A stretch of 64,000 bases of DNA from Schmidtea polychroa (Eukaryota). The stretch spans positions 32,738,001-32,802,000 of the forward strand of contig CM097885.1 in assembly GCA_044892525.1 (NCBI GenBank), written 5' to 3'. Within the stretch, counting starts at the first letter, position 1. Every line of letters starts with the position of its first letter. A model generated the notes under the pieces. That model was not told where the DNA came from and searched no databases. It saw only the letters and a list, made by a program, of their open reading frames with translations. The translations under genes and the position numbers were made by a program. Below, one piece after another: positions 6,345 through 45,516 of this stretch.

Positions 6345-6800
6345 GTTAAGGTCAACTTTAGGGCATAGAAAATTTTGAGGCCAATTTAAGGTCAAATTTT
6401 AAGGTCAATGCCACTTTCAGGACAATTTAAGGTCAATTTAAGCCATTTTAAGGTAAAATTCTGAGGTTAAAGTCGATTTTAGACCATTTTAAGGTCAAGT
6501 CTTGAAGTAAGAGTCGATTTTAGGCTATTTTAAGGTCAACATTTGAGGCCAAAGTCTAATTTTTCCAAATTTAAGGTCATAGAAAATTTTAAGGTCAACC
6601 CCCTACCCCCTACCCCTATTTTTAAGGTCAGAGAAAATTTTGAGGTCATAGAAAATTTTAAGGTCAACCCTCTACCCCTATTTTTAAGGTCACAGAAAAT
6701 TTTAAGGTCATGGGAAATTTTAAGGTCATAGAAAATTTTATGGTCATAGAAAATTTTAAGGTCAACCCCCTACCCCTAATTTTAAGGTCAAATTGAGGTC
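6345..6800. repeat. Imperfect tandem array of (T)TTAAGGTCA units; candidate terminal/subterminal array of the large element
   Basis: Many TTTAAGGTCA / AGAAAATTTTAAGGTCA units with CCCCTACCCC inserts; reverse complement recurs at 11055-11157. Confidence 0.9.
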
Positions 6801-7539
6801 AAAAATTAAAAATTTTAAAATTTTTCTAAGTCCATTTAACGAATTACTTTATAGAAAATTTTCAAAGTCAAAACACGTTTCAATACTACGTTTGCAAATG
6901 TCTGTTACACATGCATTTGCAAATGTCTTTGTTACTCATGCATTTGCATTGCATATGTCTTTGTATTACACACCTTAAGGATAGAAAAATATTTCTAAGC
7001 GAGATCTAAAGTGAATGTGTGTAAAGGGCAATAAATAAGGGTAAAATCAAAATTTTTTAAGAAAATACATGTAATTTGATTAAAATTTATGAAAACTATA
7101 TATATATATGTTTTATTTTGGGCAGATAATCTATGTGTGTCTGTATATGAAAACATTGATAAGGAGCAATAAATATCAAATCAAATCTCTTATGTTTTAC
7201 ATATAAATATATTAACCAATCAGAATCATAACCAGTATTAGTATAAATAAAACAGAATATTTAAAATTAATGTACAATGTCAAAATCAAATTTTGCAGAA
7301 AACATCTTAAAAGGTTTGGTTAATGAGAATATCGCACAAAGCCTCAGTTTCCTAGTTAAACAAACTGAGAAAATCATTGAGGGAAACCATGTCGACTACC
7401 AAACCATGCTTGATATAGAATGCCTGGAGACGAAGAAATTTTATTTCAATAGGATTTTCGACTGTCTATTCGACGACCAAATGAGTGGACCAGAATAATC
7501 ATAGGTTTTACCTATATGAAGATTATTATAGAAAAAAGT
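6740..7539. repeat. Left arm of ~0.8-kb inverted repeat (partner 10277-11157)
   Basis: Near-identical reverse complement; same peptides appear on opposite strands (MRSKIKNF..., CLETKKFYFNRIF...). Confidence 0.95.
7277..7539 (+). pseudogene. 5' part of Bcl-2-like gene A (frameshifted, truncated copy)
   Basis: Copy of exon 1 of 10018-10540; has CAA at codon 42 but a 1-bp deletion (ATGAGTGG vs ATGAAGTGG) before the BH1-like motif, and ends at the IR boundary. Confidence 0.75.
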
Positions 7540-7654
7540 AATTTCATTTTTTAAATTTAAACTACATAATTATTGTTTATATTGATAATTCAAATGAACT
7601 CCGTTTTAAAATAACTATATATATATATCTGAGTTTTATAATTATTTCATTAAA

Positions 7655-8119
7655 ATGCTTTCAAATATAAATTACAGAGCAAAAGCTGATGTATCAAAAA
7701 TGGTATTTCCAATGGAGAAACCACAATAACTTATCAATAGAAGTAAAAAATATCCCATAATATATTTCAAAACTGGTAAATGTAGAATTATGGGGTGTAA
7801 GGAAATAATCAAAGCTAGTGAATATAATGTTTATGATTTAGAAATACAATCGATGACCGTAACTTCCGATATGGGTTTTTCTTGTAATTTAAATGAATTG
7901 GCTAAATTAATACCATGTGTTTACGAACCAGAATTATTTCCAGCTTTGAGATATATAAAATATAACCCTATGTGTGTAAATATATTCGCTAGTGGTAAGA
8001 TAGTAATTCTTGGAATAAAAAATATTGATTACAAATGTATAGTTGATAATATCATATCTGAAATTAAATCAATAATTGAAGGAAAAGAATTTTTAGATTT
8101 TTTATTATCACTTAATTAA
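7655..8119 (+). pseudogene. Divergent intronless TATA-binding-protein-like gene with one in-frame TAA
   Basis: Frame from ATG 7655 gives both TBP pseudo-repeats (IIYFKTGKCRIMG and VNIFASGKIVILG) plus YEPELFPAL; TAA at codon 25 (7727-7729); listed ORF 7790-8119 is the downstream part. Confidence 0.85.
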
Positions 8120-8241
8120 TTATTTAAAAAATCATGTGATTGCAAATTCGATGCAACTGAAATGCATGATTCTGATTGGTCGAAATCTAATTAGCTGAAG
8201 ATGTTTTGGGTTTAGTTTTCATTTATTAATTATCATTTACC

Positions 8242-8659
8242 ATGTACAATAATCAAAGTTCAGCTATAGCTGCCATGAAAGAACATGAACATAATGGTAA
8301 ATTTAAATTTTTTAATATTAATTGTATTTATCATATTATTATTATTTACAGATGAATATCATGCAATAATACTGGAAAGATTGTATTTTTATTACCCGCA
8401 ATTGTATGATATTCTCAAAGATCGAGATGTTGCAATAATCCCAGATTTAGTTTACAATGAAACCAGAATCTGGATTTTCGATATTATCAATACATTTCTC
8501 TGGGATGTGAAGATTGGAAGAACAATGAAGGAAGTGGAAGCAGAATACCCTTGCATTTTGGGATGTAGCTGTTGCAATTTCAGCTACCAGAGATATGTCG
8601 AATGGTCTTTGGTAAAGACACTTCGTAATTATCATTTTTGTCAAACTTTATCCAAATAA
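8242..8659 (+). CDS. Small spliced gene, unknown Cys-containing protein (exons 8242-8296, 8352-8659)
   Basis: 55-nt GTAAAT...TTACAG phase-1 intron (8297-8351) joins MYNNQSSAIAAMKEHEHN in frame to DEYHAIILERLY...CILGCSCC. Confidence 0.65.
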
Positions 8660-8972
8660 ATTTGTATGTTTAACTATTTGTTGTTTTATTTTTTTTTAGT
8701 AAATAGTAATAGAAATATAAATAAGATTAATAATAATAATAATAATAATAATAATAATAATAATAATAATAATAATAATAATAATAATAATAAAATTAGT
8801 TTGAAAGTAATAAAAGCAATAATAATAATATGACACATATAAGATATGACAATGCAACATCAATGCATTTTGAATGTAATTAAAACAAAGACATACTGCA
8901 ATTTGATTGGTTTATAAACAATAGTCATAGGTATAAAAACCCTGTACCATTACAATTCAATCATAATTCACG

Positions 8973-42884: not shown

Positions 42885-43310
42885 TTATTATTTTCATAAC
42901 AACTTATTAATTTCAACATCATTTTCAGGAACATATTCATATTTGTCATAATTTTCAGATTTTTCATAATTATTTTCAGAAAACTTTCATAATTTTCAGG
43001 AACATTTCATGATTTTCAACCTTTTCATAATTATTTTCATAAACATTTTCATATTTTTCATAATTTCAAACATTTTCATTATAATTTCAGTAACATCTTC
43101 ATAATTTTCAGATTTTTCATAATTAATTTCAGAGACATTTTCATAATTTATACGTGGTTATCATCATTTTCAATATTTTCAACATTTTCATAATTTTTTT
43201 CAGAAAACCTTTCATATTTTTCAACATTTTCATAATAATTTCAGGAACATTTTCATCATTTTCAGCATTTTCATAATTATTTCCAGAAACATTTTCATAA
43301 TTTATACGTT
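42885..43310. repeat. Degenerate ATTTTCAT/TATGAAAAT minisatellite
   Basis: Many imperfect ~9-bp units; minus strand reads NYENV-like repeats with frameshifts. Confidence 0.85.
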
Positions 43311-43377
43311 GTTATTAAACAAAATTAATTATCAAACACAATTTTTAATTAATTTTAAAAATAATAATAAAATATAA

Positions 43378-43875
43378 CTAACATTTTGATTCTATATCGG
43401 AATCATCCTCAGATTCATCTCCATAAGAAACGGAGGCATGATTAATTTCCTCCTCAATAGACGTGAGGGCATATTCATCAGAAACAACATTAATATTTGG
43501 GGCATATTCAACATTTGAGGTATCATCACCTTAAGTTTTTGTAATTCATTAATTAAATAAAATAAATTTACCCATTGATTCCATGATAATATCTCGGGTA
43601 TTGTCCTCAATAACATTTTCACCGTCATTAATATGCTGATCAACTAAATAATTTTATTTTCAATAAAATTTTAAAAAGAAATTTACTTAATAAAAGATCT
43701 TCTTCATCGTCACTAATAATAATTGGCAGATCTTGATTATAGTTGTCGGCCTCGGTGACTTCATACCATAAATTCTCTAAAATAATAAATAATAATAATA
43801 ATAATAAAAATAAAATAATTTACCGTTTTCTCCTGCCAACATGGCGCGTAAAATATTATCTAATTCACTGTCCAT
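43378..43875 (-). CDS. Four-exon small acidic protein gene (exons 43875-43824, 43776-43687, 43643-43572, 43529-43378)
   Basis: Three GTAAAT...AG introns of 47, 43 and 42 nt, all phase 1, keep one open frame MDSELDNILRAMLAGENENLWYEV...DESEDDSDIESKC*. Confidence 0.75.
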
Positions 43876-44179
43876 TTTTAATCGAAAGTTTTTAGTCGAA
43901 AATTTGTAAAATTTAAAAATAATTGTGACGATTTTGGAAATTGTAACTGCTTATAAAGAAAATGATTATTTTACGGTCCAATCAAAATCAAAGAAAGGAT
44001 AGGAAAAAGAATAAATACATTACGTTGCGGTATTTTAAAACTTAAATATATTTTAAAAACACATTTTGACACTAAAGTTGACTTATTTAAAATTTTCAAA
44101 ATCGTCACAATTATTTTCAATATTTTCATGATTTTCAATATTTTCATGATTGTTTTCTTCAAAATCTTATTTTATTTAC

Positions 44180-44524
44180 AAATTATTATTATTATTATTA
44201 TTATTATTATTATTATTAATATTATTATTATTTTTATTTTTTATATTATTATTATTATTTTATTATTATTATTAATACTATTAATATTATTTTTATTATT
44301 ATTATTATTATTATTATTATTATTATTTTTATTTTTATTATTTATAATCTTATTATTATTATTTTAATTATTTATATTATTATTATTATTTTATTATTAT
44401 TATTATTAATATTATTAATATTATTTTTATTATTATCATTATTTTTATTTTATTTTTTTTATTATTTCTATTTTTATTATCATTATTATTATTTTTATTA
44501 TTATTATTTTTATTATTATTTTTA
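44180..44524. repeat. Degenerate (TAT)n tract
   Basis: Low-complexity run. Confidence 0.93.
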
Positions 44525-45073
44525 TTAGGGATATCACATAATTTCATTGGGCAATAGGAAATGGGGTCAAAATTTAACTCGTCAAGATAATTTTCATAGG
44601 AATTAACTCTATTTCTATTTATATGTACAACATTACGTTTTAAAAGTGCTAAAATACTATATATAAAGCACATATCGTCGGTGTTTTTGACGTTTACTAT
44701 TGCTTTTTTAGAATTTAAAGCCGCTGGGGTGGGGATATAACTATGTTCAGCTAACCTATTCATATGGGTAAATTTTATTAATATAAAATCTATCTCTTTG
44801 ATTTTAACCACCCGCCATCCGCTACCCAAATATGTGAATTTTTCTATTTTCTCATTTAACTTAGTGATACCCTCTACTAGAAAATTATCTGAAAAAACCT
44901 CTGCATTATTAGAGAAAAAATTATCTCTAATTTCCCCATCTTTTTCAAACTGGATTAAAACGGTGAACTGAATTTTAACTGTGTCATCTTATTTGTAATG
45001 AAAACTTGTACCAAGTTATCTTTTTCCATATTAAATCATAAATTCTTTCTAGTCCCCTTAAAATCTATCTCAA
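44525..45073 (-). pseudogene. Duplicated N-terminal PolB fragment
   Basis: Copy of ~41373-41955 with a small deletion; reads NVKNTDDMCF where the main copy has a stop. Confidence 0.9.
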
Positions 45074-45516
45074 CAGACAATTGTGCGAGAATTCGGAGAA
45101 TCACAAACTGTGAATGACTTACTCTACTTTATTGAATCGAATAATTATTTGAGATCGGAAGTCAAAGTTGTTTTCTTATCCGACCAGAAACATGTGCGAG
45201 ATCGGTGACGTTTCGATCAAATTGAAAAATTCAGGAGCAAACAGACGAGAAGTCATCAACATTCTCAAGCTCTAGTAATGTTCATTTTCAATAATTGTTC
45301 GCAAATATTTTTCTTTGAAAGAAAAGCTTAACTATTATTCCCATTAATTATGATTATAATTTATAAAACTTTACTTTTTCAAAATAATTTCCTTGAAATT
45401 TTGTTAATTTGTTATCATTAATTATGATTATAATTCAGTTTAAAATAAGTAGTTAGTGGTCTTGCCCCTTCTCTGGGGAAATCAGTGTCAATGTATAACA
45501 CTGATTATAGTGAGTG
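45071..45516 (+). pseudogene. 3' fragment of the UBX gene and its downstream flank
   Basis: Matches from ~12391 onward, with a 2-bp deletion in the coding part. Confidence 0.9.

Follow-up and report, generated by a model that had tools for sequence, protein, structure and literature searches.

Polintons, also known as Mavericks, are elements of 13-25 kb with terminal inverted repeats (TIRs), target site duplications (TSDs) of 5-8 bp, and genes for a protein-primed DNA polymerase B (pPolB), an integrase, an ATPase, a protease and capsid-like proteins (10.1101/2023.08.22.554363). In nematodes, exchange of PolB between otherwise similar elements is reported from the same work. Homologues of Bcl2 and IAP were observed in adintoviruses (Starrett et al. 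2021, PMC8502044), and the Burro giant long terminal repeat (LTR) retrotransposons of planarians carry the apoptosis genes BCL2, BIR and MATH/TRAF (PMC6431247). Planarian Polintons are piRNA-silenced and become de-silenced in differentiation (PMC8532177), and Maverick expansion has been reported in Dugesia (10.64898/2025.12.11.693146). Here we analysed a stretch of 64,000 nucleotides (the window) from the planarian Schmidtea polychroa, whose genome has 781 Mb, is AT-rich and lies in four large contigs (GCA_044892525.1; contig CM097885.1, positions 32,738,001 to 32,802,000). [quoted passage not shown] We conclude, with a probability of roughly 0.85, that the interval is made up of dead, rearranged fragments from an abundant Polinton/Maverick family, in which two or more subfamilies are represented, and of a UBX gene that likely belongs to the host, with multiplication by a recent local duplication.

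The genes named earlier are present: the TBP-like, FAF1/UBX and pPolB genes are recognized by Pfam, two Bcl-2 genes can be read, and the SSB-like product has a predicted OB fold. A marker comparison of 6345-45516 found no integrase, ATPase or protease, as had been stated before. The block at 6313-11157 is the right end of a high-copy canonical Polinton/Maverick; a mirror copy of this end stands in place of the core. Complete members of the family were found elsewhere in the genome. Nine single, un-nested copies measured 14.8-17.3 kb, with ends AGTAG...CTACT and 6-bp TSDs, which is within the size, TIR and TSD ranges of Polintons. The TSD was exact in 11 of 12 bounded copies tested, and the twelfth matched when the end was moved one base earlier. 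These copies encode pPolB, adenain, capsid-like proteins, integrase and ATPase, followed at the right end by the TBP-like gene, an optional open reading frame (ORF) labelled TM, the SSB-like gene, an acidic ORF and, in some copies, Bcl-2. A Pack-MULE-type non-autonomous element had also been considered for 6313-11157, and was dropped because of the full-length copies elsewhere.

A first look at the genome gave 3,961 TBP, 3,973 SSB, 2,387 Bcl-2 A and 42 UBX matches, which are candidate counts and not copy numbers. The best 150 of the TBP-like and the best 150 of the SSB-like candidates were 89-100% identical. Linkage was examined in 19 TBP-anchored loci of 20 kb, picked at steps down the best 150 of the 3,961 TBP matches. 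The ATPase, the core protein, SSB and the acidic ORF were present in all 19 loci, integrase in 18, PolB in 17, the putative major capsid protein (MCP) and penton in 16 each, protease in 15, TM in 14, Bcl-2 in eight and UBX in none. PolB, protease, MCP, integrase and ATPase were found in every one of eight hand-picked loci, of which five had Bcl-2 and none UBX. Elsewhere in the genome TBP, SSB and Bcl-2 thus sit in bounded elements with the core, and the outcome that would have refuted the earlier account, cargo genes unlinked to PolB or capsid loci, was not seen for them. The Polinton/adintovirus-like affiliation is therefore retained for the TBP/SSB/Bcl-2 block, while the idea of one element over 6345-45516 is not.

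The core genes of the family are of the usual kinds. Domain PF03175 was found in the pPolB pieces of the window (E 2.3e-14 to 1e-7), and other copies have pPolB ORFs of 1,268-1,301 aa. The integrase matched rve (E 6.5e-8) and has a chromodomain, the packaging ATPase is A32-type (Pox_A32, E 2e-7), and the adenain protease matched PF00770 above cut-off and was present in 8/8 hand-picked and 15/19 sampled loci. The core is canonical, so the family is not a new kind of virus. The names "penton" and "core protein" were assigned by position.

Several results weigh against our reading of the interval and the family, or against parts of it. The family's own putative MCP, for which a double jelly-roll protein would be expected in a Polinton, had no Pfam match; its relative at locus L201 gave PF21738 only weakly (E 0.039), and an Atlas score of 0.98 was to a cluster where PF21738 is found in 30% of members, recognition being below threshold. 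The putative penton is a conserved 355-aa ORF at the expected place with no family match, and its label is positional only. Nested insertions occur in the sample (S02, S09), so a marker within 20 kb sometimes belongs to a neighbour and not to the same element. Exon 1 of Bcl-2 A alone matched PF00452 at E 0.0056, below the Pfam cut-off, and no intact element with Bcl-2 B was found among ten loci examined. To be set on this side as well is that TATAAAC, the promoter word discussed below, had already been named when its enrichment was tested.

Two further observations concern the core genes. The adenain gene, which directly follows the MCP gene in L113-L117, has an apparent tiny first exon and a short GT-AG intron. 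A different Maverick family at L055:7919-9999 carries a PF21738 capsid gene and a phospholipase A2-like gene.

The block in the window can be aligned with the right end of subfamily A, in which the TIR is about 860 bp and the Bcl-2 ORF lies outside the TIR. Its left arm (6313-7539, + strand) is an inverted duplicate of the element's right end: the TIR runs from 6313, where it starts with AGTAG, to about 7175, and Bcl-2 A exon 1 is represented by its 5' part at 7277-7539. The junction of this arm, at 7538, is with the ATPase/TBP intergenic region, at the place expected for the start of the ATPase gene. The left boundary is thus the terminus at 6313, and not 6345 as first placed. The mini-TBP gene follows at 7655-8119 (+); it encodes 154 aa in intact copies and has an in-frame stop at codon 25 in the window copy. 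Next is the TM ORF at 8285-8659 (+; 124 aa, hydrophobic N-terminus, no Pfam match), whose dN/dS is 0.12-0.15 where computable. The SSB-like ORF of 140 aa at 8973-9395 (+) is open, and the acidic ORF of 103 aa at 9664-9975 (+) has no family match. Bcl-2 A lies on the opposite strand at 10018-10540 (-), with exon 1 at 10540-10238, a GT-AG intron at 10237-10198, exon 2 at 10197-10018 and a stop at codon 42 in the window copy. The right TIR (10642-11157, -) is truncated short of its terminus, where it overlaps the UBX unit by 9 bp.

Mirror-image structures are common in the family. Among the 112 PolB matches listed, 62 were in 31 head-to-head pairs, and there was one tail-to-tail pair. The arms were 98.6-99.9% identical in six mirror copies examined, and two mirror copies had clean 6-bp TSDs around the whole palindrome. 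We infer that mirror copies arise by copy-back during strand-displacement replication and then integrate in trans, and this explains the left arm in the window. PolB-only palindromic elements of 10.5-12.4 kb were seen at L041-L052, with open ORFs of 1,268-1,301 aa in both arms; two of them had clean 6-bp TSDs.

Several PolB subfamilies, defined by pairwise identity, exist at 55-70% identity around a common structural block. The window holds the 3' third of a subfamily-B pPolB with its terminus (13365-15100, +; again at 22416-24159) and the left part of a subfamily-B Maverick (37813-44527, -), which has its terminus at 37813, a pPolB broken in several places at 38519-42446, and a truncation at 44527. 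An older degenerate pPolB remnant, 51-58% identical to the markers, is at 19492-20018 (-) and again at 28530-29056. Five copies whose Bcl-2 is at least 93% identical to Bcl-2 A (A1, A2, A8, inner A9 and S01) have a PolB only 55-67% identical to that of the window. Four copies with window-type PolB (86-92%: A6, S17, S18 and S19) contain TBP, SSB and the acidic ORF, and all four lack Bcl-2, TM and UBX. The outer element in A9 has a Bcl-2 and a PolB 74% identical to the subfamily-B marker. From these copies, TBP and SSB are linked to the window PolB type at the family level and Bcl-2 A is not, and the link drawn earlier between the Bcl-2 A block and the window PolB is not supported. The subfamilies are mosaics. 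At synonymous sites S01 and S03 differ by 9% in TBP and by 66% in Bcl-2.

The TBP-like ORF matched the Pfam TBP family (PF00352, E 1.5e-15). A model of the protein from an intact copy had a pLDDT of 95.8 and matched TBPs (Foldseek E 3e-9, TM-score 0.6-0.7). It is 22-28% identical to cellular TBP and forms a family of its own with 97 database relatives of about 150 aa. In the model the second repeat of the saddle is intact, while the first is shortened and its long helix is missing. On the DNA-facing strands F38, F95, F111 and N6 are invariant in 52 aligned mini-TBP sequences, and the invariant residues include three intercalating Phe. By our alignment the fourth DNA-intercalating Phe position is apparently replaced.

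We also collected 56 TBP loci outside the host genome, mostly on short contigs. An SSB-like gene was present in 17 of them, ATPase in 15, integrase in 11, protease in ten and MCP in nine; UBX and Bcl-2 were in none. Two of these loci (L170 and L174) have the whole marker set including PolB. Because they recur in metagenome relatives, the TBP-like and SSB-like genes are genes of the lineage rather than recent captures. Both resemble transcription and replication genes that belong to the element itself, and their earlier place in a host-manipulation kit is given up. Scans of viral contigs gave no match with P0012 and one distant match with the TBP alignment. Other accessory genes were seen in metagenome relatives: a ubiquitin-conjugating enzyme (L170:225-719), a dual-specificity phosphatase (L165:4008-4316) and a RING protein (L201:1710-2168).

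In five elements, 16 of 43 ORF starts had the word TATAAAC in the 90 nt upstream, versus 4.3% of random windows, and none of four TBP starts had it. From this enrichment, binding to TATA-like DNA and support of initiation are a candidate role of mini-TBP. An alternative accepts the TBP-like, SSB-like and Bcl-2 genes as real family genes and changes the roles: the TBP-like protein would be a decoy for the host partners in TFIID, and TATAAAC would be read by host TBP. The shortened first lobe with its missing helix and the apparently replaced Phe position would suit a decoy, and TATAAAC is close to an ordinary TATA box. The invariant DNA-facing residues count against this alternative, as does the absence of the word before TBP itself in 4/4 elements. 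It seems rather unlikely to us.

The SSB-like ORF was poorly recognized by sequence. Sequence-only searches gave a sub-threshold Csn2 match in Pfam and one near-identical match in a word search; there was no Atlas match and no real match in a PDB profile search. The full HMM search gave 39 matches. A model based on a 49-row alignment had a pLDDT of 90.5, and its four best structural matches were ASFV CP312R, DUF2815, Enc34 SSB and T7 gp2.5. The Z scores of 7.0-7.4 over 101-126 residues are middling and below the tool threshold of 8, and Foldseek gave no match at E<=0.001 (best E 0.017); both count against the assignment. The ORF is predicted to encode an OB fold of the gp2.5 class (T7 gp2.5 / Enc34 / ASFV CP312R), with putative single-stranded DNA binding. 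In a young 15.0-kb subfamily (L162-L163) the SSB-like gene lies inside both 1.4-kb TIRs, and dozens of 100%-identical SSB pairs lie about 13.2 kb apart.

Bcl-2 A and Bcl-2 B each have two exons, separated at the same codon boundary by a GT-AG intron in phase 0, and their first exons are about 30% identical. Bcl-2 A has a BH1-like motif, in which Gly is replaced by Thr, a BH2 motif and a hydrophobic tail, the latter two encoded in exon 2; these are the features of the Bcl-2 family. Its database matches were A1/BFL-1, Bax and Bak, and a related copy at the N1 locus is above the Pfam cut-off when it is read across the intron. At least four subfamilies include open two-exon copies, whose introns measure 40-247 bp and lie at one codon boundary. 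Contigs assembled from four sequencing runs had no junction at the Bcl-2 intron, which lies in a repeat skipped by the comparison; one contig, of a run only presumed to be RNA, had a poly(A)-like loose end directly behind the TBP stop, and neither result is given weight here. Pairwise dN/dS among four natural copies was 0.06-0.20 for Bcl-2, 0.14-0.24 for TBP, 0.13-0.21 for SSB and 0.05-0.10 for ATPase, with some pairs near saturation. These values indicate purifying selection on the spliced Bcl-2 (dN/dS 0.06-0.20).

Among 11 other Bcl-2-like frames compared, the closest was L224 (26% identity, E 8e-10). It has no element marker in 5 kb, its BH1 is also non-canonical, and it is uninterrupted at the site of the element's intron. 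The usual splice site, following GGW at the canonical position, is apparently present in L224. In the distant Maverick L230, an unspliced version of Bcl-2 stands beside SSB and TBP. From these comparisons it is plausible that Bcl-2 was captured from a host paralogue and the intron was gained later inside the element. Seven near-identical Bcl-2 family matches lie in one region of C4 (L220, 89.9-90.8 Mb), apparently a host tandem expansion.

Bcl-2 B is a pseudogene with several stops at 32355-32872 (+; exon 1 32355-32657, a 47-bp intron, exon 2 32705-32872). A 3' piece lies at 13041-13371 (-), with a repeat at 22092-22422; at 13365 a microhomology of 4 bp joins it to PolB. The Bcl-2 B family is older and dispersed, with 1,098 candidates. 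All ten Bcl-2 B loci examined were degenerate; eight had Maverick fragments within 10 kb and none had UBX.

The FAF1-like UBX gene is intronless and occurs as four identical 321-aa ORFs with PF21021 and PF00789, at 11631-12596 (+), 20682-21647, 29720-30685 and 33323-34288 (-), together with a fragment at 45071-45516. The genome has 28 UBX matches, 16 of which are in C2:68.9-69.7 Mb, and older paralogue fragments are found 20 kb beyond the window. UBX was absent from all 19 sampled, eight hand-picked and ten Bcl-2 B loci (0/37 in total), and the earlier view of it as viral cargo is abandoned. The paralogues have little common sequence beyond the ORF; the PolB fragments near them differ and lie outside the common sequence. 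Most likely, judging from these comparisons, UBX is an ordinary host gene caught in local duplication.

Three results are unfavourable to a host origin. In 9 of 11 UBX units of a 120-kb stretch of C2, a 38-residue SSB-like fragment is found on the same strand some 0.7 kb upstream. A PolB fragment was within about 3 kb of four of eight other UBX-related loci (U1-U7 and the C3 copy), and background PolB was lower, at two matches in 180 kb. No intron-bearing parent was found. One may thus ask whether UBX was ancient cargo of an extinct Maverick subfamily, with SSB followed by UBX converging on Bcl-2 B, and was later domesticated into a host cluster. The lack of introns, the upstream SSB-like fragments in nine array units and the PolB fragments near 4/8 loci would all agree with such a history, as would the convergent order of UBX and Bcl-2 B in the window, which is like that of the acidic ORF and Bcl-2 A, and purifying selection on UBX (dN/dS 0.22). 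However, the nine array units are 97-99% identical and so represent one event. Around paralogues with 94-98% identical protein (U2, U4, the C3 copy and C2_100k) the neighbouring fragments differ or are missing, and those present all lie beyond the common sequence. In addition, UBX was in 0/10 Bcl-2 B loci and 0/56 external loci, and homology of Bcl-2 B with other loci ends at 32942, before UBX. We regard ancient cargo as improbable and keep UBX as a probable host gene.

Self-alignment of the window showed a 9.05-kb tandem duplication at 11149-31005 (about 2.2 units, 98.9% identity over 10.8 kb), inverted copies of parts of its unit at 32553-39673, and a separate inverted repeat around 6734-11123. 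The multiplicity of genes in the window is explained by the tandem duplication and the inverted copies. This recent duplication (+) contains UBX, the Bcl-2 B 3' piece, the PolB 3' piece with its terminus, a non-coding repeat and the older PolB remnant. In the direct copies UBX, the Bcl-2 B 3' piece and the PolB 3' piece adjoin, with the microhomology junction at 13365. The inverted copy has the order Bcl-2 B, UBX, 3.5 kb of mostly non-coding repeat, terminus 37813 and PolB; so PolB, UBX and Bcl-2 B are not contiguous there, contrary to the first account. Of the element termini in the window, one belongs to subfamily A, at 6313, and three belong to subfamily B, at 15100, 24159 and 37813; the flanking sequences do not match one another, and no TSD was found between them. 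TBP, Bcl-2 A, Bcl-2 B and PolB are broken in the window; the ORFs that stay open are SSB-like, TM, acidic and UBX. With no core, mismatched termini, no TSD and broken ORFs, the window copies do not form an autonomous Maverick.

That one endogenous mid-size DNA virus once spanned 6345-45516 with both Bcl-2 genes, TBP, SSB, UBX and the window PolB as a host-manipulation kit is highly improbable: all genes are present, TBP and SSB do occur with window-type PolB (A6, S17, S18, S19), outer A9 pairs a 74% subfamily-B-like PolB with Bcl-2, and UBX, Bcl-2 B and PolB adjoin in the direct copies, but the termini at 6313 and 15100/37813 belong to different subfamilies without a common TSD, the terminus at 37813 stands between PolB and UBX, UBX is in 0/37 element loci, Bcl-2 is absent from window-type PolB copies (4/4), and the junctions show microhomology.

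Under our reading of rearranged fragments, the origin of the locus may be described in three steps. In one copy, ~11 kb on the left would have given way to a mirror of the right end through a template switch (copy-back). Joins at microhomologies would then have attached pieces of the mirror copy, of a subfamily-B copy and of an old relic of Bcl-2 B to a UBX gene resident at the locus. At last, the 9-kb unit would have been duplicated in tandem and inverted.

For the intact elements we suggest the following life cycle. Copying by pPolB would start at the ends of the linear genome and proceed by strand displacement, and the strand set free would be coated by the gp2.5-class SSB. The mini-TBP could act with host Pol II at TATAAAC before the packaging and capsid genes, and not before TBP, which would make an early-to-late switch. 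The spliced, tail-anchored Bcl-2 homologue might delay the death of the cell in which the element replicates. Taken together, we tentatively propose, at somewhat less than even odds, a widespread and apparently undescribed 15-kb polintovirus lineage which uses its own minimal TBP to switch on late genes via TATAAAC, as in much larger DNA viruses, together with a gp2.5-type SSB; in S. polychroa it would also carry a host-derived Bcl-2 with an intron gained inside the element, and would shed copy-back defective genomes that are integrated in trans.

Other features of the window were noted. The non-coding repeat at 15101-19430, with internal inverted repeats, is found in part and inverted at 35088-37812 and is present at other loci. 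It has a short motif in common with Maverick ends and matches palindromic DNA at other loci; it may belong to a gene-less Maverick satellite. An older Maverick has left degenerate MCP (63%) and penton-like (54%) remnants, absent from the preliminary description, at 52838-53617 (-). The ORFs from 57295 to 64000 and onward into L021 (BIR, MATH/TRAF, RING/Sina and coiled-coil) lack introns and have a strong AT skew, and a stretch resembling Bcl-2 BH2 follows at some distance; this fits a Burro-type giant LTR retroelement. At 4161-5105, two (TA)n tracts enclose about 0.8 kb of higher-GC DNA with a short inverted sequence at each end (CAGTGCTCGAAGTG / CACTTCGAGCACT), as in a small DNA transposon that targets TA.

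The family bears on how Mavericks time their gene expression and replicate their DNA. It supplies a candidate promoter factor, a candidate promoter word and a candidate SSB, so both questions become testable, and thousands of young copies are available. With Bcl-2-like loci in the thousands, studies of cell death and the mapping of reads in the host could be confounded. The claim of p97/UBX cargo fails, and the window itself, being dead debris, is a poor place to study the family.

The literature we searched, with Repbase and most subscription journals outside its scope, gave no description of a mini-TBP and SSB lineage or of integrated copy-back Mavericks. Bcl-2 in adintoviruses is already published, and the lineage with mini-TBP and gp2.5-class SSB is apparently undescribed. 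Compared with adintoviruses, the family has the same PF03175-type PolB (their Alpha type), adenain, rve integrase and FtsK-type ATPase (PMC8502044). It differs in that TBP appears there only among the figure-legend abbreviations for non-animal MELD viruses and SSB is unmentioned in the main text; the comparison covered the main text and legends, and a TBP-bearing animal element could be shown in the supplementary figures. With Polintons and Mavericks the family shares its general plan, and exchange of PolB as in nematode Polintons is seen in S. polychroa too. It differs from them by the conserved mini-TBP, the gp2.5-class SSB-like gene, the intron-containing Bcl-2 and many head-to-head mirror derivatives, and the window copy is non-autonomous debris.

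The Burro elements are also mobile elements with apoptosis genes, and a similar element starts at 57295 in the window; however, Burro is a retroelement with an unrelated mechanism, and its Bcl-2 is a polyprotein domain (PMC6431247). The mini-TBP has the same saddle fold as cellular, archaeal and large-DNA-virus TBPs (PDB 2z8u and 1mp9; in BFVD, the Heterosigma akashiwo virus TBP and gammaherpesvirus BcRF1), and differs by its length of about 150 aa, its shortened first repeat and its low identity to cellular TBP (22-28%). The SSB-like protein is matched with the T7 gp2.5 class by its four best structural hits, and differs from these proteins in its smaller size, in the lack of an acidic tail (a separate acidic ORF is found downstream) and in an identity of 4-12%, its binding being putative.

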